From the NCBI GenBank assembly GCA_050084515.1, contig CM114271.1, positions 14,136,001 through 14,200,000 on the forward strand: a stretch of 64,000 nucleotides of DNA, given 5' to 3'. Shown here one piece after another: positions 3,265 through 43,960 of the stretch (position 1 is the stretch's first letter; each line of letters starts with the position of its first letter). The position numbers were made by a program, and so were the translations under genes. The notes beneath the pieces were generated by a model. The model was given only the letters and a program-made list of their open reading frames with translations. It was not told the DNA's origin and made no database searches. Source of the stretch: Blasia pusilla (taxonomy: Eukaryota).

Positions 3265-3405
3265 CGGCGACCGTCGCCATCATAGTCACCGTCAACGGTC
3301 GACGGTCAACCATCACCGTCAACGGTCAACCGTCACCGTCATCGGTCGGCCGTCACCATCAGCGGTCAACCGTCACTGTCAAGGGTCCACCGTCCATTGT
3401 CCACC
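3265..3405 (+). repeat. Degenerate short tandem repeat (ACCGTC/ACGGTC units) in the 5' leader of Gypsy copy 1
   Basis: Repeated caccgtcaacggtcaaccgtcaccgtc motifs. Confidence 0.8.
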
Positions 3406-6830: not shown

Positions 6831-7192
6831 TCGATTCACAGTCTTTGTGATCGAGCACGGCTAGGAGAGATGGCGACCTTAGCGGCATTTAGCAAAGGTG
6901 CCATCACTTGGCCTGGTGATTTGATTGAGGACATGTCCATGCAGAGGATACTCCGTTCTGAAATTTCTATGGAGAGGAGTGTTATGGTAGCTGCATCATT
7001 CCGTGGAGGAGAGGTGTGCTGTGGGGCTCGGCGAGGAGCTTCAACGATTAGCGGTCGCCGCGCACGCGACCCGCGTGGAGCGAGGCGTTTGCACGAGCGT
7101 GGCGGTCTCGAGGAACCCGAGGTAGCGGGAGTGCTACGATGACACCCTTGGATACTACACCCATTGTGTGGTGTACCGGAGGAGTGTATTCG

Positions 7193-8100: not shown

Positions 8101-8559
8101 GGGAGTGGTGGCGGCGTCGTATGAGATTACGGACGAGATCACGGCGGTTGCGTTGGTGAGCCCCATGCCTACCGAGACGGTGGAAGCGGCTAGGGGCGAG
8201 ACCCGAGGAGATCTCACGCACGGGGGAGATCGGGAGAGACACCCTGGACTTCTTGGGATGTTTTGAAGGTGCGCAAGGAGATGATAGCCACGACATCGGC
8301 GTGGTTTGAACCGCACTGCGTGGAGGAGATCGAGTTTGCGGTTGGTGCGCAGGAGAGCGGCCAGTGTTGTTATTCGAGACGGGGTTGCACCATAGCAACC
8401 ACCGATACCCAGCGCCGGAGAGTCCTCTGTAGTCACGATGGAGACTTGGGAGCGGATATGGGCCCTAAGTTGTGAGGAGGAGAGCGGCGCCGAATACATC
8501 AATTCCTCGGGAGTTATAGGAGCGCTGCGTTTAGCATGGAGGATTTGGGTACGTTGAAG

Positions 8560-10966: not shown

Positions 10967-11147
10967 AGAAGGTAGTTCTACATTCCGACTTGTGTCTATG
11001 ACATGGATGACAAGAAGGCGACTAACGATGGGGCCACATGAGCACCCCGCCTTCTTGCTCTTAGCGTCCGAGAGATGTATGTCATGGTAGGTAAGGATAG
11101 ATGGCTATCTGGAGTTAGAGGGACCTAACCACCAGCTAGGGGGGCGA

Positions 11148-11914
11148 TTGGAGATATTTTGGTTCTTCTTGTCTCGTTGTTTGGATACCATGAGTTAGCA
11201 TGGGATCATGCGTGTTTGTGTGTGTGTTCGGTGACAGCGATGTATGTTGTGTAGCGATGTGTATGCGCACGGCGGTATCCACGTCTTTTAGGATAGATCG
11301 GTGGGATCTAATAGAGCGCCTTCATGAGTAGTGGAGGACACGCCCAAAGATGGGTCGAGGTGACTGCTGAGGCCCTTGAAACCTGAGATAGCGGTTTCCC
11401 CTTCATGTGGCTCATTTGGAGCCATATTGAGAACTTACTATTTTAGGTAAGTTCCATTTTGAGTATATGATGGACTTACTATTTTTGGTAAGTGGCCCTT
11501 GACCTCCTACATCAGGTCAAGAGCCAAGGAGGTGACTTGGGAGAATAGGTTACCATGGAGAGAGCTTGGGAGAGGAGAGGGGTATACCTCAAGGAGAGAG
11601 AGCTTGAGAGCTCATTCTCTTTTTGTTGAACCTCTTGGCATGAGGCGGCGGAGCTATGGTACCTTGCCTTGTGAGTGTAACCCAAGCCTCTCATTAGGAG
11701 AGTGGGTTTGGTTTGACATGAGAGAGAGTGCACACCTTTGAGAGCTATGGTGTGAGATGGTGGAGAGAGAGATTGGATCTTACTTTATTGGAGATATTTT
11801 GGTTCTTCTTGTCTTGTTGTTTGGATGCCATGAGTTAGCATGGGATCATGCGTGTTTGTGTGTGTGTTCGGTGACAGCGATGTATGTTGTGTAGCGATGT
11901 GTATGCGGACGACA
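11148..11914 (+). repeat. B1-A2-B2 composite 3' terminus of Gypsy copy 1
   Basis: TTGGAGATATTTTGGTTC...GTATGCG occurs at 11148-11274 and 11788-11914, flanking a copy of A; preceded by PPT AGGGGGG (11138-11144). Confidence 0.93.
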
Positions 11915-12869
11915 TCTTATATGTGGATGACTTGATCATTACTGGAGATGATGTACAAGGGATACATGATCTTAAAGAAAGACTCTCCTCTTCATTCAAA
12001 ATGAAAGATCTTGGGAGTTTACACTTCTGCCTAGGACTTGAAGTAAAGCGAGGGCCGAAAATGACCTTCTTGACTCAAGAAAGGCATATAGCTATCTTGC
12101 TTCAAACTTTTGGCCTAGAGGACTGCAAATCAACGCCCACTCCGACGAGTACAAAGAGACTTACTTATAATGATCAAGAGGAGAAGGTGGACTTGAACGA
12201 GTACCAAAAATTGGTGGGCTCACTTATCTATATCACCAACTCCCGACCAGATATTGCATATGCAGTAAGCCAAATCAGCCAACATATGGCTGATCCCTGC
12301 AAGTCTCACCTCATTGCACCAAAGAGGGTGGCAAGGTATCTTAAGGGTACAAACACATTTGGGCTTGCCTACAATAGAGGCATCCAACAAGCTCCGATAA
12401 TCTTGGGATTCTCAGATGCTGATTATGCAGGTTGTCCAATAACTCGCAAATCAACTTTAGGATATTTCTTCTCCTTTGGAAGTGCGGCTGTGAGCTTCTC
12501 ATCAAAGAAGTAAGCCTCAATTTCTCTATCTTCCACGGAGGCAGAATACCGTGGATTGACATATGCCACAACGAAGCCATATGGCTTAGAGGACTATTGG
12601 CTAAAATTCGGTTTACCCAATCTAATCCTACTGTAATCTTGGGAGATAACATTAGTTCTATTTATTTGTCCAGAAATCCAATCTTCCATTCACGAACCAA
12701 GCGTATCGAAGTGCAGCATCACTTCATTCGAGGAAAGGTACTGAGTGGGGACATCAATGTTGTGTGGTGTTCGGGAGACAAACAGGTTGCTGCCATCTTC
12801 ACCAAAGGCCTTCCTACTGCTAAGTTTGAAAGATTTAGATCACTTCTTGGTGTTTTAGATTCTGTGTAA
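11915..12869 (+). pseudogene. Copia pol 3' part: RT C-terminal half and RNase H
   Basis: Removing 2186-11914 and one TCTT restores gtg atc tta tat gtg gat gac (VILYVDD). Continues MKDLG, YQKLVGSLIY, SRPDIAYAV, FSDADYAG, IFTKGLP. Confidence 0.93.
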
Positions 12870-16080: not shown

Positions 16081-18164
16081 AATCCTATTAGTTGTGGTTT
16101 ATTACTAGATCATGTATTGTTCACAATTTTCCATTGCTCCTCTTGGTGATTGTTAAATGGAGGAGTTACTTTAGTAAGTAAGTGGTGGTCATCTAAGTAA
16201 CATAATCCTCTTAACATAATTAGAGACTCTCTCAGATTCAGCCAGGAGTAATGTGTGAAAACAAGTAGCGTAGACAATGGTAAGGATAGACAAAATCTGA
16301 ATCTTAAGGGCTAGAAGAGGGACATATATCAACCAAGTAATTCTAGGGTACATGCCAATTACAATGAATACTGAAAACTACAAATACATCATAATCAAAC
16401 CATTCTCTAATTAATGAAACCCAAAAATAGATTATTCATTCTATAGAAGAATTAAAGTATTTACATCTCAACAAGCTGCAAGAAGGAACCAAGAGCATAT
16501 GGAAACCAAACTACAAACGAATGATCTGATGGAATCATTGTGAAAGTTTAAACATTTCTGAAATCACCAAATCTAGATATCCTAATGAACTAGCTTTTTA
16601 AGATTCAAATGTCAAGGAAAAAAGTGAAAGCCTGACTATTTTACCCTCTACTTCTTGCTGTTTAGTACTTTCGGATCACACTCTGACTCACTACCCACAC
16701 TTGCAACCATCTTGGTGGTTGCCTTCATCTTCTTCTTGATCTTTGGTGAAGCTTGTATGTCCATTATTACTTCACCTGTAGAACATTCAACTTCAAAAAG
16801 ATTAATATATGGAACACTATTATCAATTGAGAAAATTCTCACTTGCACCACTCATAAACACGGAAGTTTATTGAATTAGTTGTTGCTATCATACATGCAG
16901 TTTGCTCCCATTCTTGAGATGTACTTCAACATTCCTAGCTCTCAGAAAGTGCCAATAGAATAATAAAAACATGGATTAGAAAGAAAATAGAGTTGAGATA
17001 TGCACCCTGGGATATTGTAGTAGTCACAAATTTAGCTTTGTTACTACTGTTTATAAGGTGAGTATGATCAATCTTCTCTTTACCTACACAAGAGCAACAG
17101 AAAAATGCCAATAAATTTTGGTATGGTCTTAGTGAGGTGAGTGAGTAATCACTCACCATATCCAACTTGAAATTTTCATTGCTGAATATGGAATAGAGGT
17201 ATGGAGAAATTGGAAAATGTAGGTACAAAATGTGGGAGATTCTTGAGTGTTACCATTGATCATTACTCTTGAAGAGCTCTTGTTCAACACCTGGCTCACC
17301 GGATCAGCATTGTGGAATTTCAGATTTACATTGCACATCATTGTATAGTTATGGTACACCTACATTAAAAATTTACAGACAACTTGCAAAGAGAATTTAA
17401 GTGATTAAACCTACAAGAAGATATGTCAAAGATTTTCACCTATCAAATTAGTCCTATCTTCAAAGCCAACATTCATGTGAGGCTTTGTCCTCCTTTTCTT
17501 AGGGGACTTTTTAGCCTGAACAAGGTTCTCAACATTGTCTGTAAGCTCATGCGATTCTCGATGACGCCTTGCACAAGCCATACATAGAAGCAATTAGATC
17601 ATGATATGGAAATGAGAAAAAGTGATCATAATTTAGAGTGCCTTAATGAAACCTAACTGGACTTATATAAGAAAAAGAACTTACTTTTCAGGGTTGATAG
17701 CTTTCTACAAGTGCATAATCAATTGACACATTGGATGTTCTTTCTTTTCCACTTTGAGCTAATTTTAAGACCATGCGCAAAAGTACACTCAACTTCTCCT
17801 CAAGAAGTTGGTGACTCGCCTGAAGATCATTCCATTTATTTTGTTGCTCCCTCTGGCCATTTTCAATTTGGGATATCATATCACGTAGACCTTCATCCAA
17901 TCTAGTCTCCACCTCATTCATGTGGGAAATGAGATATGATTCGACTCCTTGTCAAGCATAACAGATAAATAATACAAGCTGTCAATGATTTCTATGACAA
18001 ATTTCCTTCATTTTCCTTTCTATCCATGACCACTACACCAACCAAATTTAAAAACTTTTGTGTAAGTTACCCGTGAAGCCCTACTAAAATCTGTACTAGT
18101 AGGGTGTGATGATGGAATCTCTTCTCTTGCTGTTCCATGAGCAGAAATCTCTCTTTTTGGAACC

Positions 18165-18641
18165 TGTCACATCTGAGTAGCCGATAGGTCGAGATCTATC
18201 GTGGATAGGGCGTAGGAGCCAGCGGACTATCTTGAGTGTAACTTTGTCCCCCGGTGTCGGATGAGGTTGAGGATAGGTCCATTGTGTCAGGAACGTCGTT
18301 TCTGACAACTTTCATGTTGAGGTCTTTTACAGTCAGGTGACTTGTTGACTAGGTCACCGCCCCAGTACTGTGTGCGCAAGAGTTACCAAGGAAGGGCTAT
18401 TTTTAGGGGAAGAGCGTTTTGGCTCTTCCCAACCCTATATAAGAGAGGAAGATGGCTTTCCTAAGCCATCTTTCTCATGTTGGGCCGTTGAAGCACCTCC
18501 CTTGTATGTGTGTGAGCTAGGACTAGGGTGCTAGCGTCCGGATTCCGTGATAGCACAGGGTGGACGAGGCTCGATATGTCGATGTAGATTGAAGAGTGGA
18601 GTTTTAGGCCGAGTGTGCCATTTTTACTACTCTTTATTTTT
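18165..18641 (+). repeat. Terminal repeat A1 of copy 2, containing TATATAA (18436-18442)
   Basis: Highly similar to 27440-27920; differences are mostly transitions. Confidence 0.95.
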
Positions 18642-18655
18642 ACATGAGAAAGATG
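18642..18655 (+). promoter_or_regulatory. Putative self-priming primer-binding site (copy 2)
   Basis: ACATGAGAAAGATG immediately 3' of A1 is the exact reverse complement of CATCTTTCTCATGT (18467-18480), which starts ~31 nt after the start of the TATA box. Confidence 0.75.
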
Positions 18656-19827
18656 TCAGAGGGCTGGTGGGAATTTGTTGTTTGCATGTAGGCAAGCGAG
18701 TCGCCTTGGTCGGGAGCCCCTGAAGACGTGTGTGTGACGTTTTGTGTGTCATTTTTTTGTTCGGAAGGCCGTGGGCGGAAGCGCTGTCTGTTTTTCTCAG
18801 ATTTTGCTGGTGCGGATTGATGGGGACAGCAGCAGGGTGTAGCGCAGGTTGTATCGGCAGGAGTAACGTCGTCTTATAACGCGTGGAATGTCGGGAGTAC
18901 CCAGGGAGAAGAGTTAGAGCTTGCAGCCGCCAGGGGGCTGTCAAGTAAAGGGCGGGTAGGTTAGGTCGCGAAGGCTAGAAGCGCATGCAGGCGACAGCGC
19001 AGACGAGCAGACGGCAGACGGCTAACAAAGTAGGGCGCGGACAGCAGAGCCCCCTCTCTCCGTGGTAAACGTGGTAGACGGACCATAGTCGGTCGGGCTG
19101 TTGTAGCATACATGGTTGGCAGGACGGACGAGGTTAGTCCGGCAAATGTGAGTTGAGATTTGCCGGACATGCTTGGGAGCCGACCAGGGTGAGTCACGTT
19201 ACATGCCGCGCGTGGGGATTGATAGAGGGGTTTGCGCGACATGATGTTTTGGGGCGCGACAAGGCGTTGCGAGAGTTGACGATGGAGGGGCAGTGTGCAT
19301 GATGCCGACGGGTGGTCCGCATCTGTTGACGGGAGGATCGACGTGTTGGTCGAGGGGAGTGTTGTGTTGCGGAGATTTTCATCTCATGAGGAGGAGTGCA
19401 TGTTGACAGTGCAGCAGGTTGGAGGGCGTGATCAGGTTACCCATTCGAGTCCCTTTTCCCGCACTTGTCGTGTGTGATTGAGAGTGCTGGTGCTAGATGG
19501 GTGCAGTGATGGTGACGAGTGTAGATTCTTTTCATGTGTAGCATGTTGGTGGATATACGGCGGTTGTCGAGTAGGGGTCGCGTGTATGACCCGAGAGAGT
19601 GTCGCTAGGTTAGGTGATTCAGTTGGGAGGCTCATGGTGAGCCCGAGTGTTGAGCGTGCGTGAGGCCGGGTATGTCATCACGGGATTGATGTTAGCATAG
19701 GTGAGCTAGTGAGGCGTGTGGGAGACTCTCGGTGAGTCTAAGTGCTTGAGCTGGTGAGACAGGGTTTGTCATCATTGCGTTCTTCCAGGGTTCGGAAGAA
19801 CGGGGTAGTACGAGCAGTAGTAGTGGT

Positions 19828-22260
19828 GTGACACGGAGTGGAGTGAGATACCAAGGGGTTACCAGTGAGGAGCTCCCTCAACATCCATCCGTGACTGGAT
19901 CGTCATCACTGGACACTGGGTCTGGTGACAAGATCACCGACAGAGACAAAAGTACTTGGCAGGAGATGGACGACATGGGCCATCGGGGCATGCGTCGTTT
20001 CTCGGGTGCAGTGGGCACCATCGACTTAGATGATTTCATCCAGGAGTTCGACACATGGTGCGACTTCCAGGAGATACGGACCCCGACACGGTTCAACCCT
20101 TTCATGGCATGGAAGGGGTTGTTCCTGTACTTGGAGGGTCCTCCGATGGATGACTTTATGGAGTTTCGATCACTTTATTCAGTAGAGATCGATGCTTGGA
20201 GGATGTATTGGGCTCCAGGGTATGTGTCCACTAGTGGTCGCGAGGCATATGATGGGATTGTGAGAGGAGAGAGACCCACACCATCAGCCCGGAGACTAGA
20301 TGGAGAGGAGGGCAGTGAGACAGGCGATGTGGCAGAGACTTCTAGTGGTAGAGGGCCACCCAGCTTCAGCCCCACAGTGGAGTTCTTCCGAAAGTTGGGG
20401 AAGAGCTACCAGGGCGTACGCACCGACAAGCTGAAGAGTCTACACGATTTTCAGCGACGATCGAGTGAGAGTCTGAGAGAGGCATTCACACGCATGAGGA
20501 GGCTGATCATTGCTACGTTTGGAGTGACTGAGGCGCAGTCGACCCAAAGATTGGTACTGGGTTCGGACCGAGAACTACGGAGGAGAGTCCGAGATGCGGT
20601 GCTGATTCACACAGCGAAGCCCACATTGAAGGTGGTCTTTGAGTTGTCTGAGCATATTGAGCTCAACATGAGTGAGGAGCATGTAGTGACCGCTGGATTT
20701 TCTCGAGAGTCGACGGGTCCATGAGCGACGGTGACCCCACAGGTGCCACAGCGGGCATCAGTACCACGGGAGCGGGCCAATATGCCTAGAGAGCGGGGGG
20801 GTACCGTGTGAGCCTATGAGGCAACAACCCGCACCTACATATGTTGCCCAAAGACGGACCGATGTGGTCTTGTTGGGCGTGTGGAGGGGCCCATAGGCGA
20901 GAGAGCGCCCACGGCATGGGAGAGGACCACCAGCGCCCACGATTGCTCAGAAGCCACAGAGGATGGCCCCACCCACACACCGGTGTGACCATTGCCCACG
21001 AGATATGGTCACACTAGGGATAGATGTTTTGACCTTCGCCGAGGGGCACGCGTCGAGGTAGGCCGAGGGCCTGGGGCGTGCGTCTGGAGGAGGTCGGGAG
21101 TTCTTCTTGGGCGTGGTGGTAGAGGACCACCACCAGCCAGGAGGAGATGGAGCAGAGCACGAGCCGGCACTTCTCTCACGATCGATCACTTGAGTAGAGG
21201 ATTGCTTTGCCATGACGATGATGCGGCTTAGGAAGGCACGAGTGCGGCGGCTAGTGTGACTCGATTTCTACCTCTTACCCGACCCGGGTGAGGATCTCTC
21301 CAGTATGGGATTCATGTGTAGTGCAGCCCAGGTTGAGGCAGATGCAGTGGAGACTCGTGGTGCTGCGAGAGGCACCGAGCCAATCGAGAGGTGGAGTTGA
21401 GATTGACCCACCAGAGGGGACCGATGGGCGGCAGGCCAGGGTTCCACAGTCGTTCACATTGTCGGAGGCACTACACACACCATCGATGGTGCCTAGACGA
21501 CCAGCGGTGCCTATAGTTCAGGCACCTACGTCGACGTCACGAGGAGTTGGAGTGACAACTCCTATGCCGGCTCGAGTGGAGTCAGTGTTGACCATAGTGT
21601 TGGAGGTGGCCACTAGAGTGAGTCAGACTCCGCTATTTTCCGCCATAGAGTTGGCGACGTTGGGAGTTGGACTAGCTGAGGTGTTCTGGTTGGCCGCCAT
21701 GTTGTGTGAGTGTGGAGAGATGAGTGCTTCTTGTTCAGAGGTAGTTGAGGAGGTGGTGGACTTGCCCTCAGAGCCGGTGCTGGGGACGTTCCCCACAGAG
21801 TCATGGCATGCGGCGGCGGCGAAGTTGGTAGATATGCCAGCTTGACCGGCCATAGAGCGAGCAGGGGTGACACCTGGAGTAGTGTTACTGGATAACCGAG
21901 GTGGAGTATTTCGCTTGTTTAGTCCAACGGAGACGGTATACCACCCCCAGCGCGTCCTACTTGATTCAGGAGCGCAACCCTTGACGTTAGGGAAGGCGGC
22001 GTGTTTAGCGTTGGGGTTACGGAAGGCCGACATTGAGCCTTGTCCCTTCCAGATACAGACCTCGATTGGGGGCGTATCACCCACTCAGTATATGACTCAA
22101 CAAGAGATTGTTGTCAGAGTCCAGCCAGAGCATGCGACAAATAGTGCTATGGTGCGCATACGTGCGATTACGACACCACCGAGTCGCATGCGGCGTGTTG
22201 GTGGGGAGAGTCTGATGTTATATTCCTAGATTCATCCTTGACTTCTAGGAGGAGACCGTT
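19828..22260 (+). pseudogene. gag and protease of copy 2
   Basis: 298-aa gag ORF (FSGAVGTIDLDDFIQEFDTWC, FQRRSSESLREAFTR), CWAC..H..C and CDHC..YGHTRDRC knuckles, protease RVLLDSGAQP (~21955). Confidence 0.88.
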
Positions 22261-22680
22261 GCTTATCGGCCAAGATGGCGGTCGGTGTGCCGGATGAGTC
22301 GATTACGGTCGCGATTTGCGGGACGAGGTGGTCGATCACGAGGCGAGTCTGTGACCACGTAGGCAGCTTTCACAGGTAATGTTAGCTGACCAGGAGAGTT
22401 GTTGGAGGGGAACCCACATGTGGAGGATGTCCCAGCAGCGGATAGTCCCACGGAGAGACAGGCCATGGCGGGTGTCTCTTCCCATGTTGGCGAGGCCTCT
22501 TCACCATTGTGGGGTACGACTCGGGAGCTATAGAGGAGTGTCGACGACCTCGTGAGGCAATCGTGGAGTCATGTTTTTATCCCAGAGCAGCGAGAGTCAC
22601 GTGGCGCTCGGGCTCTTGGAGTGGAGACGATGACCCCACTAGATACCACACCTGTTGTGTGGTAGTGCCCAGAGGAGGGT

Positions 22681-23615
22681 GTTAGATCTCTCCGGAGGGA
22701 TTAGCACCGGATTGGCTGCACTATTGCCGGTGGGCATACGGGTGCATCAGTACCTTTATGTGGAGAGAGATGAGACCGCACGGCGAATATCATTACGTCA
22801 CGTGGCGAGATTGGTCTAGAGGTATCCTGAGTTGTTGCCGGTATCTGCAGTACGGGGATATCAGCATACGCTACCCGCCGATATCTCTTTGGTGGGGGTG
22901 CAGGATCTGGATAGAGTTGGCACCATTCATTTGGTGATTGCTGGATGGCCATGTTAGGGTCATTCATCAGCTGACTGAGGATTTGGATTGCAGGATCCGA
23001 GGTTAGGGATGTTTTGGGAGATGCTGCGAGTATTACGACACTTGAAGGAGAGCCAGATATGTTCTCCAACGTACATTTTGGAGAACGTGCCATTGTTAGG
23101 AGACACTCGTGCACGTGTGATGACGAGTGTACATCAGGTGAGGTCCAGGTTGGGACCTGCAATGTTGTTAGATGCAGCGAGAGTTGGGTCACGTGCCTAT
23201 CGTCCACGACTGTGGTGGGAACGAACCTGATACCATCAGAGGTACTGAGTCGAGCATACGGTGGAGTCCAAAGAGCACCACATCTCACCGTGGATGCTAT
23301 TTTGGGCTCAGAGCATCGATCTCAGGTGGTGACACGGGATGATAGACCACCGTTGGCCATGGCCAATAGGGTGGGGGAGTTGAGGGCAGCCTTACCTATG
23401 TTGGTGAGCTTCCCAACATCCCATGCCTTTCGTCAAGGAGGGCTAGGCATGATTTGGGATGAGGTGACCGGAGCATTGGAGGAACCTACAGCAGATGAGC
23501 GCGAGCGCGCCATGGGGTTCACTATGGTACTACGGCGGTGCCGAGGGGATGACCGAGGCATCACGGAGACAGTGTTGGGGCGGCGATGGACCTCAACTGT
23601 CTCACATGGATAGTC
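22681..23615 (+). pseudogene. C5-cytosine DNA methyltransferase domain inside Gypsy pol (copy 2)
   Basis: LDLSGGISTGLAALL (I), QYLYVERD (II), DISLVG (III), IHLVIAGWPC(stop)GHS (IV; TAG at 22955 where CAG is expected), GLQDPRLGMFWEMLRVL (V), YILENVP (VI), LDAARVGSRAYRPRLWW (VIII), EEPTADERERAMGF (IX), LG.AMD (X). Confidence 0.92.
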
Positions 23616-24049
23616 ACCTAGGTATGGCTGAGCGGCATACGGATGCAAGTGTCATCCATGCCGTCACGCCCACGAAGTTGGACCATTGCCTCTGAGTGAG
23701 TGCAGACACGCATTGGTGGGGCGAGACGAGGAGAGATAGGCACCCATGGACTTCTGGGACGTCGTTCGAGCGAGAGAGTGCGAAGGCGGCTAGAGTAGCA
23801 CATGTTCATTTTTCGGATATGGAGCATGGTGTAGGAGGGAGGGGAGTGGAGTGGTCATTTATGAGGTGGCTAGGGTTGCTACATAGCAACCAAAGCCGGA
23901 GGTTGCGTCCTCTCCGAGTGAGGTCACGATGGAGACTTGGGAGCCTGTGATAGGTCTCAAGTTGATAGGAGGAGAGCGACGGCGAGTTCATAGTTTTTAC
24001 GAGAGGGCATGTCGGTTGTTTTGCCTTGATATGAGAGACTTGGATCGTT

Positions 24050-27000
24050 GAAGGGTCCCGGATACGGATTGAGTTGGCTAGTGATACGCCGATCTTTCGT
24101 CGACCCTCTGGTATTCTGATATGGAGCGAGCCTTGATTGAGCGGGAGTCGGGACTTGTTGGAGGCGGGACTTATGGAGTTATCACATGGGGAGTATGCAT
24201 CGCCCACAGTCATGCCGGCAAAGAAGGATATGTATGGCAATTGGACGGATAGGCGGATGTGTGGTGATTACCGTCCTATCAACCGACAGACGAGGTCAGA
24301 TCGGTATGCCATGCCTACTCCTGAGGAGATCTTTGATGCGGTAGGGCATGCAAAGATCTTCAGTACTTTAGATCTCCATGTTGGCTATCATCAGCTTCCT
24401 ATCAGGTTGGAGGACAGGGAGAAGACAGCATTTTGGGGGATAGATTGGTTCGGGAGAGATTACTTGTATCAGTGGCGGTTCTTACCATTTGGGTTGGAGA
24501 ACGCGCCTGCAGAGTTTCAGAGAGTGATAGATAGGATTCTGGCTGGCTTGGATTTTGTACGATGTTACATAGATGATATTCTTATCTTCAGTTCCACGGT
24601 TGAGGAGCATGAGCGACACTTGGAGGAGGTACCTTGAAATTGGTGGTTGGTGGGATATTTATGTTACCATCAAAAAACGTTTTCTTGATCTTGAAAATTA
24701 CCTCCTTGTTTGACATGTGGCAATTGGACAGATAAAAATGTTTTCTATCTTACGGACATCAAGAAAATGTCTCCCCCTTTTGCGCCATTTTGTGTGTAAC
24801 ATGATTAATCTCTTCACTCTGCGCATGGCACGGGTATGGTAAGTGGGAGGTGTTTCGGCAATTGCAGTTACATGGACTGAAGTTACATCCAGGCAAGTGC
24901 AGATTCTTTCAGGAGCAGATTGAGTACTTGGGACACACCATATACCCGAGTGGGTTAGGCGCTCAGCAGACAAAGGTAGAGGCTATTGCATAGATTCCAC
25001 GCCCTACAGATGTGAGTCGAGTCCGAGCATTTCTTGGACTGGCAAACTTCTATCGACGGTATGTCAAGGGTTTTAGTGCGATCGCAAAGTCTTTGACCTT
25101 GTTGACGAGACTTGATCAGTTTTGGTTGTGGGGAGATGATCAAGAGCGAGCATTTCAGGAGCTCAAGGACAAGTTGACGACCTCACCCATTTTACAGAGA
25201 CCGGTTAGAGGTCGCCCATTCCACTTACATACGGATTTGAGCATGTTGGGTCTAGGAGCAGTGCTTACTCAGAGGGATGACGAGGAGAGGGAGTTCGTTG
25301 TGGCTTACGCGAGCCGATCGAACAACATTGCAGAGGCAAAGTACAGCTCCTACGAGGGAGAGTGCTTGGCTGCAGTGTGGGCCGTGGGGCGTGGCACATT
25401 TGAGGTGCTATTTATTCGGCAACCCTTTCACACTTATCACTGATCATCAGCCGTTGAGGTGGTTGATGGAGTCCGACAAGCTTACGGGAAAGCTTGCCAG
25501 GTGGGCTCTATTACTACAGGAGTATGAGTTTGAGGTGGTTCATAGGCCAGGTCGGCTGAACCAGGATGCGGATGGGTTGAGTCGTAACCCATGTCTGAGT
25601 AGAGAGACGACACAGGAGCTCAATGGCACGGAGAGAGTGATGAGGAGATGGTGCCCGGTTGGCATGCATCTGCCTATCTTTGTTGGTTGACTATGGCGGA
25701 GTCACCCACGGTGATGACTCGGTGGTGGGATTGGATGATGAGTCTTTGGATCCGAAGGTTAGTGAGGAGGCGGCAGGTGGTCGTGATATCCATGACGACG
25801 TGGAGGTTGTGGAGTTCTTTTGACCTTGGCGTCATTGCGAGAGTACAAAGTGAGTGCTAGGGAGCGGATCGGATCCTCTGAGAGCCAAGAGGTTTAGGTG
25901 GGAGGGGACTCACATTTTGCGGGTATGGGGAGATGGTAGGATACGAGTGGTACCTCATCCTTCCCAGCGAGGGCGTGTAGTGCGACATGCCCATGAGGAG
26001 TTGGGACATTTCAAGTAAAGCGTTTACGACTTACTCGATTCAGTATTGGTGGCGCGGCATGCATCCGATCAGCGATTTGTGGCGGATGTATGGTATGTGA
26101 CAGAGAGTGCGAGCATCCTTCAATGCTCCCACTCTCAGATTACATCCTTTTCCGATTATGGGTTTAGGTTATCGGTGGAGTTTAGACTTTGCGGGACCTT
26201 TGCCATTGTGATGCGTCATCATAGGTGCGTGTTGGTCATGGTGGAGCATTTCTCCAAGTGGATAGAGTTGGTGGCACTACCAGACAAGGCGAGCGAGGGA
26301 ACAGCTTATGCGTTTCTAGATCGTGTGCTTAGTCATTTTGGTGCACCGGCGGAGGTGTTGACTGACCAGGGTACCGAGTTCAGGGGAGAGTTTCAGGCCT
26401 TATGTGATCAGGCACTGATAGATCATCGCACCATGTCCAGAGATCATCCTGAGGCGGATGGGTTGGCGGAGAGAGTGGTACAGACGGTGAAGAGAGGATT
26501 GCGCAAGTATGGCTTGCAGCGGGGACAGTTGAGGGAGTGGGACCTACAGTTGCCATGGTTGGCTATGGGTTATCGCTTTAGTCGGCAGGCATCCTTGGCA
26601 TCATTTTCACCGTAATTTTTGCTCTTTGGGAGAGAGCTAGATTTACCTGCAGCCATTCGACGTTACATGGCGGAGGTGTTAGATCTTGATGATCCAGATG
26701 TGTGGGTACAAGCATGTTCTCAGAGGGTAGAAGTTTTTCGTAGAGTTATGCCTATGGCCTTTGAGAACTTAGCTATTGCCAAAGATAGAGATACATTGAG
26801 GTCGCGACCATTCGTGGAGGAGGTTATCGTCCGAGGATTAGGAGGTTTCATCCTGGAGATTACGTGTATTTACAAAGCAGCGGCACCCATGACGCTAGAT
26901 TTCATCAGGCAGGCGCACGGTCCCCCACGTGTGCGCGAGGTATTACCGACCGGAGTCCTCATGTTGGAGGGATGGGATGGTATGGTTTGGAAGGATCATG

Positions 27001-27220
27001 TGCGCAATTGTGCGCTATGTCATCTTCCGAACGTAGATGGGATGGTGGATCCGAGCTTGGCAGTGGTACCTACAGGCTTGAGGTGTATGTTGTGCGGATC
27101 TGCGAGGGGTGCAGCCACCATGTTGGTATGTGATGGTTGTTCTCGAGGGTGGCATATGTCATGTCTGACCCCCCTCTTGATGTGGTTCCCACCGGATGAT
27201 GGATGTGTCCGAGATGTGTA
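24050..27220 (+). pseudogene. RT-RNase H-DDE integrase-PHD of copy 2
   Basis: RMCGDYRPIN, FSTLDL..GYHQ, PFGL.NAPAEFQR, YIDD (24566-24577), FLGLANFYRR, LHTD, TDHQPL, integrase core VEHFSKW..LTDQGTEF..HPEADGLAER, PHD from 27084. Confidence 0.95.
24631..24845. other. 215-bp AT-richer insertion within the RT of copy 2, flanked by a GGAGGT direct repeat
   Basis: Copy 1 reads GAGGAGGTGTTT contiguously; copy 2 has GGAGGT at 24625-24630 and 24846-24851 around extra sequence. Confidence 0.8.
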
Positions 27221-27300
27221 TAGGGTAGTAGGTCATGTCAGAGAGATGTGATATTTTCTATCTAGAGTTGGGTGGATCCAACTGCCAGCTAGGGGGGCGT

Positions 27301-28058
27301 TTGTGTGATCTCCATGTATATGTATGAGTTGATTTTTGTACATGTGTGGATCGACCCGTGTGTGGGGAAGATCGGTGTTGTGTGGTGTAGATGTGACCAG
27401 CGATGTATGTTGTGTAGCGATATGTATGCGCATGACAGCTGTCACATCTGAGTAGCCGATAGGTCGAGATCTATCGTGGATAGGGCGTAGGAGCCAGCGG
27501 ACTATCTTGAGTGTAACTTTGTCCCACGGTGTCGGATGAGGTTGAGGATAGGTCCATTATGTCAGGAACGTCGTTTCTGACAACTTTCATGTTGAGGTCT
27601 TTTACAGTCAGGTGACTTGTTGACCAGGTCACCCGCCCCTGGTAACCTGTGCGCACAGGTTACCAAGGGAAGGGCTATTTTTAGGGGAAGAGCCTTTTGT
27701 GCTCTTCCCAACCCTATATAAGAGAGGAAGATGGCTTTCATAAGCCATCTTTCTCATGTTGGGCCGTTGGAGCACCTCCCTTGTATGTGTGTGAGCTAGG
27801 ACTAGGGTGCTAGCATCCGGATTCCTTGATAGCATAGGCTGGACGAGGCTCAATATGCCGATGTAGATTGAGGAGTGGAGTTTTAGGCCGGGTGTGCCGT
27901 TTTTACTACTCTTTATTTTTGTTGTGTGATCTCCATGTATATGTATGAGTTGATTTTTGTACATGTGTGGATCGACCCGTGTGTGGGGAAGATCGGTGTT
28001 GTGTGGTGTAGATGTGACCAGCGATGTATGTTGTGTAGCGATATGTATGCGCACAACA
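27301..28058 (+). repeat. B1-GC-A2-B2 composite 3' terminus of copy 2
   Basis: 137-bp B at 27301-27437 and 27922-28058; palindrome TGACAGCTGTCA (27433-27444) at the B1/A2 junction. Confidence 0.95.
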
Positions 28059-31000
28059 AACCCCCTAAAATACATCCCACATTGTAAGTGTCATTATGCA
28101 AACATTTGAAATCAGAAACAAGTACAAGTTTAGTATATAAGCTTCTGGGAATTCCTAAATTGATAGAGTAGATACCAAAAGAAGAACCTATCAATTTGAA
28201 GCTATATTTTTACAATTGAAAGTTAAAGCTCGTTCTAAGGGCTTACCGAAAAACCGTCTATGCCTGATCGGTCGTTGTTGTTCAAAGTCTGAACATGTGA
28301 CCGAGATTTTGTCATTTGCTCGGCCTTAAATTTCCCTGATTCTGACATCCAATAGTCGACCATTCGTTCCCACTATAGGAGAAAGAAAGAGAGAGAGGAT
28401 TGAAGAATCTTTGAGTTTTCAAGAAAGAGTTGCACTGAGATGGTCAAGACAGAAGTTTGAAGCTTCCCCGATAACGTAAAATTTCAGGAGGATATACTTC
28501 CAAGTGTTTCGCATTCTATGCGGCTCATGAACTCAGTGGTCAATGCTTATCCCTCAAGGCGACAGTGGAAATAATGTAGCTCACATTCAAAGACCGATTG
28601 CCTAATGGAGTGATTCGTGATGATGCTGATCTGAATGGAGAGTACAAGTAGAAGTGACTGAATCCGTAAAAGTGAAATTGACCTAAACTCCGCGAGCTTA
28701 GAAATAGCAAACATGAAAAACGTATCAAGTAACTAGTCTTTCAGGCGAACGGGAGGGAAAACTTGCAAGAATGTAAGCAAATAAATGTGACCAGCACCAG
28801 TGAACCCACTGCTCACACTAAATAATTATCTTGGCCTAGACAAGTACTCACATACAAAGCGTATTTCCTATTGTTGTCCCCCAGAAATCTGAGTTAGACG
28901 GACTAATTGTGATTTGACGAGCGGCAAACAATCAATGCCAACTGATTTCTGGCCTTAACGTGAACCTATTCCTCACCAAATAACACAGCTAAGAAAGAAA
29001 TATTCAAGTCACAGTTGGAGTGTTGCATACTCGAGGATGCCCGAGAGGATTAAGAAAATGATACTCTTATTCTATACTTGGATTTTTCTGGGGCTTGATA
29101 ACTTTTGATTCGTCGTCCATAAAAAGAACCGTGCTCATGGAATATATCATCCAAAAACACTTTTTTGAGAATGCCCACCAATGGAGATAGTCCATTTCAT
29201 GCTTTCCTCCACAGAACCGCCCCTCATTTCTTTCCATTCTGTGCTTCTCATCTTCAAACGCGCGCGAATAAAGGCTTGTACAGGTCTTCCGGGCAACTGC
29301 AAGAATAGAATCTAATCAGCTTATCCTAGTTGGATGAAGAATTCGGTGCATTTTGTACACAGGGCGAAGAAGCTCCGTATTAGGGCCCATGATTTGACGA
29401 CATCTCTGAAATTAAACACATCATAATCATACGTCGTCGATTGCTTAAGCGCCATGAGACGGTGGAAGTTACTTGGTTTTAAGATAAAAGCTATCTACCC
29501 ATTGTGGAAAAGGTCCGTGCTGGAAAAAGCTCACTTTGATGCTCATAATCAGTTCAATCCTTACAAATCGGTTTAGTTTGATTAGTTGGAGTCGAGTGGG
29601 CCAGTTCGTTGATCAACTTTTGTCACTAGGTCTTGGAAACCTACGTATCTCAACGTGGAAATCTAGTTTCATCGTGAATAGTGATATACAATCTGCAAAC
29701 CACTTCAATAGTTTAGGGGAAGACCAACTTAGTCATTCACAGATATATTCAAGCTCACAGCGCGGCGGTCAGCTGGGATTTTGCAAGGTGATGGACTATC
29801 GTGATATCTGGAACTCTAGATACTCGTTAACAAGCTGACCAGAAGCGTAGGTTTGGGGATCCAGAGCTTCTACTAACAGGAATGTTTGCACAATTCAACT
29901 ACGTGAGACTCATTCGGAAAACTGAACAGATATCTAATGATAGTACCTAAGCGACATCATCTAGATCTTTGCGTGGAAGATCAACGAGTCCGTCACGACT
30001 ATCAAGTTATAGACAGATTTCATCTCCACCTTTAAGGTCAGATTTTTGATAGATCCTGACTGGTTTTGTTACGACCACATGACTAATCAGCTTTCCCGAA
30101 ATGTAAGTTTGGGGATCAAAAAAAGAACCCCACGATGCAATTAGTGTCGATCATCCACTTACACAAAAATCTTGTGATCTTCTAGAAGTCCATATGCTAA
30201 AAACACTATTGGGAAAAAGACTCTCGGTACCATATTGACACTAGAGAATCCCTTGCCCAACGCGACGCAGCCCTCTAGGGACCGATATCGTAGAATCTTG
30301 CCCCTATAATCACCTAGCATTTTCATGTAGCATCTCAACTCGCGCGCAAGAAGTAACTCAACTCTGAGAGCGCACATTGAAAGAGTCCGCAATTGACCTC
30401 CAAGTTGGTGGAGCATCTACAAGAAATGTAGTCGCATGTGATTGCGCATATCATGTAGGAAATGGGCAAAAACATGGTTATGGTGCGTCCGGAAGGGTCC
30501 TATGTTCGTGGGTGTTGGGTTAAAATACTAGAGCGGCAGCGTCCGAGGACTTGGTAGAGAGACAGAGAGAGAGAGATTGTGTCCAGACCGATTTGGAGCT
30601 CGACCTATGGAGCGGCTTCCAAAATTTTCAATGTCAGTTTCATAACAGCCCAATTCAAATTGCACCTCACATGTGCGCGAGTCTTCCTCTCCCGCGCGCT
30701 TTTGCCTCTCTTCGCGCTCTTGCTCAACCTCGATGCTCTTGCCTCTCTTCGCGTTCTTGCCCAACGTCGACGCTCTTGCCTCTCTTCGACGTCTCTTAGA
30801 TCGTTCACACTCTCTCTCTCTCTCTCTCCCGCTTTAGTGCATCTCCAGCTCCTTGAGATCCCTCTCGTGTCCATGCATCAAAACCCTAACAAAAGAAATA
30901 AGAAAATAAAATACAAGAAAAAGAGAGCACTTGAACAAGATAACAGCGTAGGTCTTCAACCCAGTACCTCGCTTGCGGCCATGGAGACCCGGAATCAAAA

Positions 31001-31481
31001 CTGAATTGGGGCGCTTGCAAATTAAAACTTTAAGGTTCCAACTTTCTTTTTAAACCTAGTGACTAGCGATCACCGTAAGAGCGTAAAAGGGGGGTCATTT
31101 GTTTAGTTCTAATTTCAAAGTTATTACTTTTTATAGATTTTGGATTTTTAAAAAAATTTATTGGTAAGATATTTGAGATCTATCTTATGTAGCATCACTA
31201 TAATTATTGAGTTTTATTCTCCATGCCCAAAACAATTAATTAATGCTCATAATTTTCCCTTTTTTTAATGAAATTTCAAAATTCAAATCAATATTTATAT
31301 ATTAATCTTCTCCAAATTAATTTTGTTCCATAATTATGTGTGAATATGACTTGCAAATGACCAAATCATTTGTGTTACTATTTGAGTAATTGATTTATGA
31401 CTATTTCGGTTTTCGATGTCATATTAAATGATTGGACCCATTGAGTCATACTTTAAGTCATTAATTTATCACTATTTCTGT

Positions 31482-32790
31482 TTCTTGATTCTACTATTTG
31501 TGGCGAATGTATGTGCTTGCCTTTATGGACTCATTGCGACCCCTTTGTCTTGCTCTTCATGTTGGTTCTCCCTTGAGGCCGTCCACCATTGTTGATCGTA
31601 TTGGTGCAATTTCTGTATTGCGGAGCGTTGCGAGAATGCCTTCCAATGTAATCAATTGAGCGAACGTCATTGATTCATTCACTTGCATGCTAATCTTCCA
31701 GAATCGAGGTAGAGACGTCTGTCAAGAAAATGTGATAGCTATATATATAGAATAAATATTTCAATATATAGGGGTTGAGGATGATCAATGGTAGAGGCTG
31801 AATCAACAACTATGTGTGTCATCAATGTGTCCTCTAAAGTATTTCTTGATTCTACTATTTGTGGTGAATGTATGTGCTTGCCTTTATGGACTTATTGCGA
31901 GCCCTTTGTCTTGCTCTTCATGTTGGTTCCCCCTTGAGGCCGTCCACCGTTGTAGATCGTATTGGCGCAATTTCTTTGATAGGGAGTGATGCCAGAATGC
32001 CTTCTGATCTAATGAGCTGAGTGAACTCCATTGATTCATTGGCCAACATCCTAATCTTCCAAAGTTGGGGTAGAGATGTGTGTCAAGAAAATGTGACAGT
32101 TGTATATATAGAATATATATTCAATATGTAGGGGTTGAGGATTATCAACCCACATGCATGAGTTTCTAATAGCAATTTGCTAATTCTGTCATTTTTTCAG
32201 GGCAAGTGATTGAAATGCATACACTCGATAGTGTGAGTAGTGGTTTGATATTGTTATATTGCCTAAAAGCATTGAGTTTAGTTCATATTTTTGTACTTGT
32301 GGAGTTGTTGGCTATTTTTAAATGCCTCAATGGTCGAGGCTGAATGAAGAGTTCTGTGTGTCATCAATGTGCCCTCTAAATCATTTCTTGATTCTACTAT
32401 TTATGGTGAATCTATGTGCTTGCCTTTTTGGACTCACTGCAACCCCTTTGTCTTGCTTTCTATGTTGGTTCCCCCCTTGGGACGTTCGGTATTCCAAATC
32501 ATAATGGAACAATTTATCTTTTGTCTAGCGATGCTAGAATGTTTGCCGATGGATTGCCTTCATTGAGCAGCATGTTGAAATTGGAGAATCCGGTTGAAGA
32601 CTTTTATCTAAGAATGTGACAATTATAGAAAGTTGAAGAGAATGTATAGTTAAATATCTAGGTGTTGAGACCCTCAACCCCTCTATTGCGAGGGGTTGAG
32701 ATTCATCAACCCTCGTGCATGAGTTTGTAATATAATGACTTGCTTGGTTGTCATTTATGGAGCAAAAGTTAGTGAAATGCATGTACTTAT
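31482..32790 (+). repeat. Three diverged tandem copies of a ~350-450-bp unit
   Basis: TTCTTGATTCTACTATTT(G/A)TGG..AAT.TATGTGCTTGCCTTT at ~31482, ~31843 and ~32385, each followed by GGGGTTGAG..T.ATCAA. Confidence 0.9.
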
Positions 32791-40668: not shown

Positions 40669-41080
40669 ATGGTGGCAGCTCACACATCAGATTGGGATAG
40701 GAAATTAGCTTCAGCTGTCCATGCTTACAACACAGCTGAGAAGAGCACCACAGGGAAAAGTCCCTACTTCTTGGTGTATGGGCATAACCCTCTCTCGGTA
40801 GTAGAGTTGGAGTTGAAGACTGATCATACTCTAGAAGGGCACTTCCAACCTAAAGGTGGCATAGATAGCACGTTGGATATGATTGATGCCCTAGAGGAGG
40901 AGAGAAAGGCAGCATTAGAGAAGACCAAGGCCGTTTCAAAGCAACAAAGGAAGATGAGGTTTGATAACCGAATACTGCATGATCCAGTGAAGGAGGGGAC
41001 ATGGTGCTGATGTATGATAGTCGACCCCAAAAGTTTCCAAGAAAGCTACACATTCGACTGCTTAGGCCTTATCAGGTGAG
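40669..41080 (+). pseudogene. Gypsy integrase C-terminal remnant (unrelated family)
   Basis: DWDRKLASAVHAYNTAEKSTTGKSPYFLVYG, then KL....L.PYQV (GPY/F-like). Confidence 0.8.
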
Positions 41081-41515
41081 GAGCAGCAGGGAAGTAATGA
41101 GGAGGTGAGGAGCAGCAGGGAAGTAATGAGATCAGGTGAGGAGCTGAGGAGCAGCAGGGAAGTAATGAGATCAGGTGAGATCAGGTGAGGAGCAGCAGGG
41201 AAGTAATGAGGAGGTGAGGAGGAGCAGGGAAGTAATGAGATCAGGTGAGGAGCAGCAAGGAAGTAATGAGGAGGTGAGGAGGAGCAGGGAAGTAATGAGA
41301 TCAGGTGAGGAGCAGCAGGGAAGTAATGAGATCAGGTGAGATCAGGTGAGGAGCAGCAAGGAAGTAATGAGATCAGGTGAGATCAGGTGAGGAGCTGAGG
41401 AGCAGCAAGGAAGTAATGAGATCAGGTGAGATCAGGTGAGGAGCAGCATGGAAGTAATGAGGAGCTGAGGAGCAGCAGGGAAGTAATGAGATCAGGTGAG
41501 ATCAGGTGAGGAGCA
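41071..41515 (+). repeat. Purine-rich minisatellite, ~28-51-bp variant units
   Basis: Core (ATCAGGTGAG)n-GAGCAGCAGGGAAGTAATGAG repeated about 12 times with modular variants. Confidence 0.95.
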
Positions 41516-43089
41516 TCCAAGGGAAGCTCGAACCAGCTTGAGAAGAAGCAAGCTTGGGAAATGCTAGTTAGAACAGGTTCAGAAGTAGATGAGGTCGAAA
41601 TTTCAGGCAGTAGATGCTTAGGGGGAGGTAGATTTGTAGGAAGGTAGGAACCCAGAATGCGAGAGAAACCCAAGGAAGAAGTCTGGTAAGTGATAAGAGT
41701 TAGTGAGTGGAGAGAGAGAGAGGGTCATGCTTGAGCTCCCCTATAGGTAGAAGACCATGGGCTTAGCCTGTTAAGTCTCCTACTACCTGAACAAGAAGGG
41801 AGAACAGCGGATCAGCAAGGTAGGAGGAGAAGAAGAAGGTGATTGCACTACTTGATCAGTTAGGAGTTGGGTGTACTTTAGAGGATGCCTTGGTACATTC
41901 AACTAGTCCAAGGCAGCACATTGAAGGACCTTATGCTGCCCTGGTCATCCTTGACTGTGAATTCTAAGTAGAGTGTGCTTGTTGGGTTCCACTGGCCACT
42001 CCACTCAAAGCACTCAAGAGGAAGGAAGGAGTTTTGGTTAGTAGGGTGAGGATAGGATTGTGATACTGAAGTGGAGAGAGTTCCTCCAGCCTCTTAAGGT
42101 AAAGAGGTGGGGTTTGATGAGTTAAGGAGTACATCTTGTAGATCTTGATCTTCTGATCTGGCCCTAAGCTCTTACATGCGACCGAACTGGTGGAACTAGC
42201 AACATTTTCACCTGGGTTGTGTGCTGGCCATGTATTACCTGGTGAGACAGAAGGTATCTTCCCCATTAGAAAAAATTGGAGGTTCAACCCCAACTGGTCT
42301 ATGTCTTTCCTTTTTTTATTACATCCTGATTGGTATGATTTTCATGCAGACTAAACATTGCAATTATGGTCTTTGACACCATTAGTTCAAGACTAACTCT
42401 CAAAATGTGCAGATTCCATCCTTGTGGAGCACTTTCATGGAAATGATATTCCTCCGGGAATAGTGCGAGTGGAACTCAAGACTGTCCATCTTGCTTTTTT
42501 GGATCATAAGTTGTGGAAGCCAAATGAGCATGACTTTCCACCTCAATACACCTTGGGTGATGCTCTTGGGGCTTCAATTCTCTAACCTAAAATGAACTTG
42601 AAGAAAGTTGTACATTAGAGCATCCCTCTAGTCGTAGATATGGTTCGGTTAGTAATACTTGCTGATGTTTTGTTTCGGATACAATTTTGACAGTGTACCA
42701 ACACTAGAATTTAGTCTACATGAAGTTATCTTTGTGATATAAAATGGGCCATTTTTTTAATCATTTCTATATGCATGCCCTTGCATTTCTATCTAGCTAT
42801 GTTTCTCACTTCTTCCCAATGTTTGAGATGATATCATGTCCCTACTCACTCCTCGCCTCACTCTCTTTCAATCTGAAACTTGTTAGTAGGAGTAGAACTA
42901 GCTAATAAATAGAAAGTATTCTCTGTTAGATTTTCTTTCTTGTCTTTCTTCATTCAAGGTTGTAAGCTTGAGACAGGGAAGGGTTTTGTATATGGGGCAT
43001 CATATCCTATTTGAATGCCATACCTCAAGTATCTTCCCCTAATCTCCTGGAGATAATGAACATCAAATAATGTAAAGTTGTCATACACT

Positions 43090-43882: not shown

Positions 43883-43960
43883 CTACGTGTCACAAAGAGA
43901 ACCAAGTTTTGAAATGTGCAGGTCTCAACCTATGGATCCAAGACTTGCAGTGGAGGAAGG

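Follow-up and report, generated by a model that had tools for sequence, protein, structure and literature searches.

A palindromic repeat junction as the putative attachment site of a circularly permuted Gypsy-type retrotransposon in Blasia pusilla

A 64,000-nt stretch of the genome of the bryophyte Blasia pusilla (contig CM114271.1, positions 14,136,001-14,200,000, forward strand; hereafter the window, within which all coordinates are counted) holds three copies of one retrotransposon family, all on the plus strand: copy 1 at 2186-11914, copy 2 at 18165-28058 and copy 3 at 43961-49628. Copy 2 is a 9.9-kb Ty3/gypsy-type retrotransposon that carries split direct repeats, here designated A and B, in the order A1..B1-A2-B2. 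We propose, with a probability of about 0.6, that, in the internal B1/A2 junction, this Gypsy-type element inherits a copy of the attachment site used by its DDE integrase, its integrated form being a circular permutation of the reverse-transcription product. The priming sites of the element set one frame of its repeat and the integration sites set another, an arrangement that would be hard to explain without a joined intermediate that is cut internally.

In addition to the three copies within the 64-kb window, we used contigs of other sequencing runs (X1 and X2) for polymorphism and raw RNA runs (X20 and X21) for transcripts, the RNA reads being placed on the window sequence at an identity of at least 88%. 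Statements about contig joints and about differences in the other runs hold among those listed.

Two frames of one repeat

All three copies are flanked by 4-bp target-site duplications (TSDs), TCTT for copy 1, AACC for copy 2 and AAGG for copy 3, and all three have TGTCAC....ACA termini, in keeping with the TG..CA ends and the 4-5 bp TSDs of Ty3/gypsy elements. The two equal terminal long terminal repeats (LTRs) of that group are not found in copies 1 and 2, which read A1..B1-A2-B2, the left end consisting of A only and the right end of B-A-B; copy 3 reads A..B. Copies 1 and 2 represent two subfamilies, about 75% alike, that have a common layout at independent sites. The parts of the three copies, including the primer-binding site (PBS) and the polypurine tract (PPT), are as follows; R, U3 and U5 denote the repeated, unique 3' and unique 5' regions of an LTR.

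18161-18164, plus strand: left TSD of copy 2, AACC
18165-18641, plus strand: copy 2 A1, left terminal repeat, starting TGTCAC, with TATATA at 18436-18441, the predicted RNA start and R-U5
18467-18480, plus strand: predicted RNA 5' end of copy 2 (self-primer), lying 31 nt downstream of TATATA and matching the reverse complement of 18642-18655 at every position
18642-18655, plus strand: putative self-priming PBS of copy 2, directly after A1
27286-27299, plus strand: PPT of copy 2, CAGCTAGGGGGGCG, directly before B1
27300-27437, plus strand: B1 of copy 2, an internal repeat of the last 138 nt of the element
27433-27444, no strand: palindrome made up of the right end, GC (27438-27439) and the left end
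27440-27920, plus strand: A2 of copy 2, 481 nt, the left terminal repeat in its internal occurrence
27921-28058, plus strand: copy 2 B2, right terminal repeat, ending ..CAACA; A2/B2 boundary at 27920/27921
28059-28062, plus strand: right TSD of copy 2, AACC
2186-11914, plus strand: copy 1 (other subfamily), same layout as copy 2, with TSD TCTT at 2182-2185 and 11915-11918
2186-2697, 2698-2713, 11133-11146 and 11147-11274, plus strand: A1, PBS, PPT and B1 of copy 1
11272-11279, 11277-11786 and 11787-11914, plus strand: mutated junction, A2 and B2 of copy 1
43961-49628, plus strand: copy 3, A..B only, without A2-B2 and with an internal deletion; A1 at 43961-44452, PPT at 49485-49498, B at 49499-49628
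43957-43960 and 49629-49632, plus strand: TSD of copy 3, AAGG

In copy 2, A2 matches A1, the first 477 nt of the element, and B1 matches B2, the last 138 nt, with no mismatches in the first 128 nt and two in the last 9. An empty site of this copy is found in the other runs, where contigs join position 18160 to position 28059, skipping 9898 nt with 4 letters fitting either side; among the joints listed, it is supported by two contigs of X2 (59 nt on the shorter side) and by one contig of X1. Because these contigs drop it precisely, the whole A1..B2 unit is a single, polymorphic insertion. Copy 1 was inserted in the reverse transcriptase (RT) gene of a Ty1/copia element, and the copia frame (..GIVIVI/LYVDD..) closes again across the duplication.

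The boundaries of the coding region define a frame that differs from that of the integrated ends. In LTR elements generally, the coding region lies between the end of U5 on its left and the start of U3 on its right. Here, in each of the three copies, A ends at the left border of this region while the PPT and then B stand at its right border; the LTR of reverse transcription must therefore be B-GC-A. The 14-mer of the PPT, CAGCTAGGGGGGCG, is identical in all three copies and stands directly before B in each (at 11133, 27286 and 49485), while between the subfamilies the 46 nt upstream of it are 62% alike and the first part of B is 61% alike. Where a standard Ty3/gypsy element has its PPT directly before the 3' LTR, here it adjoins B1 and lies 140 nt before A2; a PBS after A1 is present.

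The PBS of copy 2 is complementary to the predicted 5' end of the RNA at 14 of 14 nt, with about 2e-6 such matches expected by chance. In copy 1 a different 16-nt pair occupies the same two places (2698-2713 and 2523-2538), with one G.U. When the RNA from its predicted start as far as the PBS is folded, the 5' end pairs with the PBS in either copy (z of -2.6 for copy 2 and -3.3 for copy 1). The pair of PBS and self-primer thus covaries between the subfamilies, consistent with self-priming like that of Tf1 by the predicted RNA 5' end.

At the A2/B2 boundary of copy 1, the last nucleotide before the PBS is fused to the first nucleotide that follows the PPT, without gain or loss of letters (the placement of one A being ambiguous), and copy 2 has the same exact fusion bar one T/G difference, which copy 3 resolves. 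This boundary resembles the U5/U3 joint of a two-LTR circle. Given that the TSDs and the empty site place the integrated ends at the boundary between B and A, the provirus would be a circular permutation of the reverse-transcription product, and the adjacency of PPT and B, that of A1 and PBS, and the exact A2/B2 fusion would together make a joined precursor almost unavoidable.

Other ways of delimiting the repeats were considered and rejected. An LTR consisting of A plus B, with B1/A2 as an ordinary two-LTR joint, is ruled out by the internal region, which borders on the end of A and on the beginning of B instead of the end of B and the beginning of A; an LTR consisting of A alone is ruled out by B2, which falls within the target duplications and within the segment missing from the empty site; and tandem or nested ordinary elements are ruled out by the independent TSDs.

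The B1/A2 junction and a proposed integration cycle

The junction at 27433-27444 reads TGACAGCTGTCA, a perfect 12-nt palindrome of the form TGACA-GC-TGTCA, as an earlier note on this DNA had claimed. The ends of copy 2, TGTCAC on the left and ..CAACA on the right, lie inside the AACC duplications, and the GC of 27438-27439 is in neither of them, which bears out the note's further claim that exactly these two letters are missing at the integrated ends. The junction consists of the two integrated termini joined via a self-complementary 2-nt spacer, CA-GC-TG. If each strand were cut 3' of its CA, the products would be two CA-3'OH ends, each with a 5' overhang of 2 nt.

The final letters of B are ..ACGACA in B2 of copy 1, ..ATGACA in B1 of copy 2 and ..ACAACA in both B2 of copy 2 and copy 3. 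The earlier note had read the difference between B1 and B2 as CpG decay, and the CpG kept in copy 1 speaks for that reading. With the CpG intact the palindromic core measures only 10 nt (GACAGCTGTC), and the 12-nt perfection in copy 2 is in part an accident of decay, one CG-to-TG change. Perfect 12-nt palindromes number 24 in the window as compared to 17.3 in block shuffles (maximum 31), and a head-to-tail join of TG..CA inverted termini is automatically palindromic, whatever the element. The palindrome alone is not special; its placement exactly at the boundary between the B and A repeats is. The idea in the note that integrase would cut this junction is borne out in part, by the DDE integrase, the 4-bp duplications and the geometry of joined termini, and it gains strength from the two frames of the repeat; the perfection over 12 nt is partly CpG decay.

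Comparison of the two subfamilies reveals that the last 38 nt of B are 92% alike and the first 10 nt of A 90% alike, as against 50-61% for the rest of the LTR, and conservation at these two places is in line with the internal junction being a heritable copy of the attachment site. RNA reads like copy 1 (about 40 in X20 and about 70 in X21) match 27401-27445 with an identity of at least 88% before passing into sequence like that of copy 1. Because the junction of copy 1 itself is only 82% alike over 27401-27445, under the 88% threshold, the transcribed copies of this type must carry a near-canonical junction, as judged from the alignment and not from the letters.

In the cycle that we propose, the RNA would start some 30 nt downstream of the TATA box of A1 and end in A2. 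Its own 5' end would prime the minus strand at the site just after A1, as in Tf1, and the plus strand would be primed at the PPT just before B1, so that a DNA with B-GC-A LTRs would result. The ends of this complementary DNA (cDNA), which are the end of A and the start of B, would then be joined in a two-LTR circle or an equivalent head-to-tail join, either via ligation or via an end-to-end jump of the polymerase. Integrase would cut 3' of CA on both strands in the B/A palindrome of one LTR to give two CA-3'OH ends with 5'-GC overhangs, insertion would occur with a 4-bp stagger, and the GC overhangs would be lost during gap repair. A two-LTR form opened at the LTR that precedes the PBS would give A..B-A-B, as in copies 1 and 2, and this would be the only form with a transcript that is a complete template (R-U5-PBS..PPT-B-GC-U3-R). 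The A..B of copy 3 could have come from a one-LTR form, from cuts in both LTRs or from later recombination between B1 and B2, which are indistinguishable.

Textbook LTR retroelements integrate linear DNA that ends at the LTR ends, and circles are regarded as dead ends. The mode of integration proposed here would be new for the biology of LTR retroelements: DDE integrases could take an internal palindromic site as a normal substrate, the occurrence of DIRS-like repeats in a Gypsy lineage would be accounted for, and an element with an integrase would have converged on the repeat logic of the tyrosine-recombinase retrotransposons. It would also provide a natural case of the old idea, reportedly put forward by Panganiban and Temin, that two-LTR circles are integration precursors. 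On the practical side, software that finds LTRs would mis-delimit such abundant elements of bryophytes and charophytes, and dating by LTR identity would be unreliable. With a Dnmt3-like methylase and a PHD finger of its own, the family bears on the interaction of transposons with host chromatin. Whether the proposal extends to a widespread streptophyte lineage of Gypsy-Dnmt3-PHD elements we regard as an even bet; this lineage may use an obligatory joined or circular intermediate that integrase opens at a palindromic site inside U3, every provirus then being permuted.

A2 of copy 2 also contains a perfect 24-nt inverted repeat at 27641-27664 (GGTAACCTGTGC / GCACAGGTTACC), which precedes the TATA box by about 70 nt. 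In A1 this hairpin is degenerate, with several indels, and copy 3 has a similar hairpin.

Counter-evidence and rival explanations

Several observations weigh against integration through a joined form that is cut at the B/A palindrome. The circular or joined DNA and its cleavage are inferred, and the readable sample comprises three copies and two internal junctions. One of these, the junction of copy 1, which the earlier note had rightly called degenerate, keeps its length and differs from that copy's own canonical termini at 6 of 8 positions (11272-11279). The repeats of copy 1 are otherwise nearly identical, with no mismatches in the 180 positions of A 158-337 and one mismatch and one gap in the 176 of R-U5, and the remaining differences between A1 and A2 cluster in A 69-157 (3 mismatches and 9 gap columns). 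Because termini and junction would be identical at birth, the proposed cycle needs a later local event in copy 1, for example a conversion patch.

Copy 2 presents difficulties of its own. Its R-U5 has 10 mismatches in 176 columns, as compared to none in 128 for B and 2 in 179 for A 7-185, and identity of the repeats as uneven as this would not be expected from simple homogenisation followed by uniform decay. Runs X1 and X2 contain an allele without this copy, even though more than 20 differences, concentrated in R-U5 and near the hairpin, separate its A1 from its A2; in a polymorphic copy such divergence may mean that CpG decay is fast, that the polymorphism is deep or that homogenisation was incomplete at birth. 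Finally, were the LTRs of a circle equivalent, an A-B-A..B form would be expected to be as common as A..B-A-B, and none of the three copies in the window has it.

The rival that comes closest would change only the intermediate. The joined precursor might be a head-to-tail concatemer or a branched form, arising from an end-to-end jump of RT or an early stop of strand displacement, with integrase taking its ends from two B/A sites. The exact, addition-free A/B fusion in copy 1 fits a polymerase jump as well as it fits ligation, the A..B of copy 3 is what two sites of one linear B-A..B-A DNA would be expected to yield, and variant A/B joints occur in contigs of X1 (single short ones, among the joints listed), one of them with 15 extra letters of which the first 9 match the PBS. 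However, cleavage inside the same junction is still required, and the evidence in the window does not separate a cut at two sites from a cut at one; we hold this version to be possible, at about one chance in several. A route like that of PAT and DIRS elements, in which the internal B1-A2 would serve as a template or bridge for recopying missing termini and integrase would insert a linear A..B-A-B cDNA, so that the junction would be no cleavage substrate, seems unlikely to us. The repeat layout of the element is that of the PAT, Ngaro and DIRS elements (PMC4157794, and PMC5890265 in the text available), and the uneven identity of A1 and A2 hints at incomplete homogenisation in each cycle, but a PBS after A1 and a PPT before B1 yield B-A LTRs, no primer site after B2 is present to fix the right end, and the canonical ends of copy 1 beside its mutated junction contradict templating as much as they contradict cleavage.

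Two further explanations would deprive the junction of any role in the cycle, and we consider both highly improbable. If the element were an ordinary LTR element and A..B-A-B an inert scar left after insertion by recombination, nesting or tandem rearrangement, the mutated junction of copy 1 and the frequency of 12-nt palindromes by chance would cause no surprise; but two subfamilies about 75% alike have the same layout at independent sites with their own TSDs, the empty site drops the whole unit precisely, islands of conservation mark where B ends and where A starts, and a charophyte element is reported to be laid out in this way too (PMC5890265, in the text available). The other, to which we give slightly less credence still, is movement at the DNA level, with the integrase acting like a transposase on the chromosomal termini, so that the ends would be inherited directly and the junction left free to decay. 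While this would account for the canonical ends of copy 1 beside its mutated internal junction, the family is very abundant and transcribed, and the long identical repeats of copy 1 (no mismatches in 180) point to recent reverse transcription. It also counts against such movement that we know of no retroelement integrase that acts in this way on chromosomal termini.

Known systems, coding region and surroundings

The closest parallel to the element is KnitGypsy-Dnmt3 of Klebsormidium nitens, for which the legend of Fig. 4c in de Mendoza et al. (2018; PMC5890265) gives the DIRS repeat structure A-coding-B-A-B with Gypsy domains. As far as the available text describes it, that element and the present one are alike in having a Gypsy-type polyprotein, a Dnmt3-type methyltransferase in Pol and the A-coding-B-A-B layout; they differ in the host, here a bryophyte, and in the C-terminal PHD finger of the integrase found here. 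The available text of PMC5890265, supplements aside, holds no junction sequence, no analysis of TSD, PBS or PPT and no mechanism for KnitGypsy-Dnmt3. Beyond that paper the name KnitGypsy is absent from the literature searched, in which, the supplements of PMC5890265 and PMC6317226 aside, we found no description of the present bryophyte family or of the integration mechanism. None of the matches in three protein searches (0 of 27, 0 of 61 and 0 of 87) was named as Klebsormidium, many matches in these searches being nameless and shared 5-residue words being required. The present element is a bryophyte, PHD-bearing member of a layout noted once before, and we leave its relation to KnitGypsy-Dnmt3 as a likeness of layout and domains rather than a claim of common descent.

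Split direct repeats in the order A1..B1-A2-B2 define PAT, Toc and Kangaroo (DIRS order) and Ngaro in the part of PMC4157794 available, and TOC1 has been called a non-autonomous DIRS element (PMC9940879). The present element shares with this group the A1..B1-A2-B2 order, an internal B-A junction that repeats the termini in joined form, and a circular intermediate that is inferred. In contrast, PAT, Toc, Kangaroo and Ngaro encode a tyrosine recombinase, whereas the present element has a DDE integrase, 4-bp duplications, TG..CA ends, a PPT and a putative self-priming PBS. To our knowledge, DIRS, PAT and Ngaro elements insert without target-site duplication; each of the three copies here has its 4-bp duplication, and the split direct repeats are found in copies 1 and 2. 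The integrase domain of copy 2 is rve, and no tyrosine recombinase (Phage_integrase) was found among 28 of its 41 plus-strand open reading frames (ORFs) of at least 50 residues and its 12 minus-strand ORFs of at least 90 residues, the other 13 plus-strand ORFs being mostly short and in alternative frames.

The integrases of foamy virus (PMC1180852) and, in vitro, of HIV-1 (PMC1905944) have been reported, in the parts of these papers available, to cut palindromic LTR-LTR junctions, and the earlier note had drawn the comparison to the present junction. The likeness to a two-LTR circle holds insofar as the junction is a palindrome of two joined attachment ends at which staggered cuts 3' of CA would give ends ready for integration. 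It breaks down over position: in retroviruses the palindrome is the U5/U3 ligation joint and the provirus is not permuted, whereas here it lies 140 nt inside the U3 of the reverse-transcription LTR, the ligation joint (A/B) is elsewhere and the provirus is permuted. Because of that permutation, the joined form would be obligatory in the present element. Self-priming has been predicted for the Tcn1 clade of mosses and clubmosses (Neumann et al., PMC6317226), and, in the text available of that paper, Tf1/Sushi and Tcn1 elements are like the present one in having a PBS complementary to the first nucleotides of their own RNA. They have ordinary LTRs and a chromodomain at the C-terminus of the integrase, whereas here a PHD finger stands in that place, together with a DNMT domain in Pol and split repeats.

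The element encodes gag, protease (PR), a Dnmt3-like methylase, RT, RNase H, a DDE integrase and a PHD finger. In copy 2 the domains RVT_1, RT_RNaseH and rve follow one another in the Pol order of Ty3/gypsy elements (Metaviridae), and the match to an aspartic protease is weak. The coding features that bear on this description are the following.

22643-23227, plus strand: Dnmt3-like C5 cytosine methyltransferase domain, in fragments, between protease and RT, recognised through longer relatives
24137-25690, plus strand: RT and RNase H, interrupted by stops and by a 221-nt extra piece (24625-24845)
26019-27251, plus strand: DDE integrase core (rve), followed in frame, past one stop, by a C-terminal PHD finger

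The short DNMT fragments on their own are marginal in Pfam (E 0.12). The fragment at 22979-23227 matches 61 longer proteins, most of them with PF00145 and some with RT and RNase H; the relative P0094 combines DNMT, RVT_1 and RNaseH, and 26 of 27 matches in the PDB of a relative of 316 residues are to DNMT3A, 3B or 3C. These longer relatives (including P0089, P0090 and P0094) show the domain to be Dnmt3-like and to share one polyprotein with RT, RNase H, integrase and PHD. A Dnmt3-type C5 methyltransferase within a Gypsy Pol is what characterises Gypsy-Dnmt3 elements, and a retrotransposon-encoded Dnmt3-like methylase is otherwise described, in the literature searched, only for Klebsormidium and dinoflagellates.

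Proteins related to those of the element were found in Marchantia, Calypogeia and Sphagnum, which points to a bryophyte as the most likely host, just as the oxygenase gene and the Ty1/copia element of the window point to a plant. Relatives that bear the methylase are numerous in the same three. The related proteins include polyproteins of about 2015 residues with RT, RNase H, H2C2, rve and PHD, and others that combine RVT_1 with RNaseH, H2C2 with rve, or rve with PHD. The PHD finger at the C-terminus of the integrase (26616-27251) sits where chromoviruses have their chromodomain and is kept in 87 database relatives. In searches of contig collections, the integrase ORF had no match in viral_contigs, nor did a 22-mer of B; a degenerate form of that 22-mer had one match in metagenome_contigs (L001), which we rejected as a chance match in an unrelated, kinase-like gene of a protist. 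An alignment of 24 sequences of the C-terminal/PHD region gave pattern matches in genome_contigs and viral_contigs, none of which was confirmed.

The 221-nt extra piece in the RT gene of copy 2 has GT..AG ends and copy 1 is without it. The form lacking the piece is found in RNA reads (11 and 8) and in three DNA contigs of X2, and because the joined form is also present in DNA, it is no proof of splicing; the piece is an insertion/deletion difference between copies. Copy 3 is without the equivalent of 22486-27201 of copy 2 (the end of the protease, DNMT, RT, RNase H and integrase) and, with its TSD retained, is a non-autonomous deletion derivative. A strong excess of G over C (skew of 0.2-0.33) and of T over A marks the coding strand of all three copies (2000-12000, 18000-28000 and 44000-50000), over a background near zero.

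The Ty1/copia element interrupted by copy 1 occupies 485-2185 and 11915 to about 13600, with rve, SH3-like and RVT_2 domains, the RVT_2 matches lying on both sides of copy 1. Elsewhere in the window, direct-repeat arrays at 41018-41570 (seven copies of about 123 nt) and 31481-32663 (three copies of about 280 nt) lie in G-rich, skewed DNA unrelated to the element, and a host gene for a 2OG-Fe(II) oxygenase at 55184-56845 has its DIOX_N and 2OG-FeII_Oxy domains in two exon-like ORFs.

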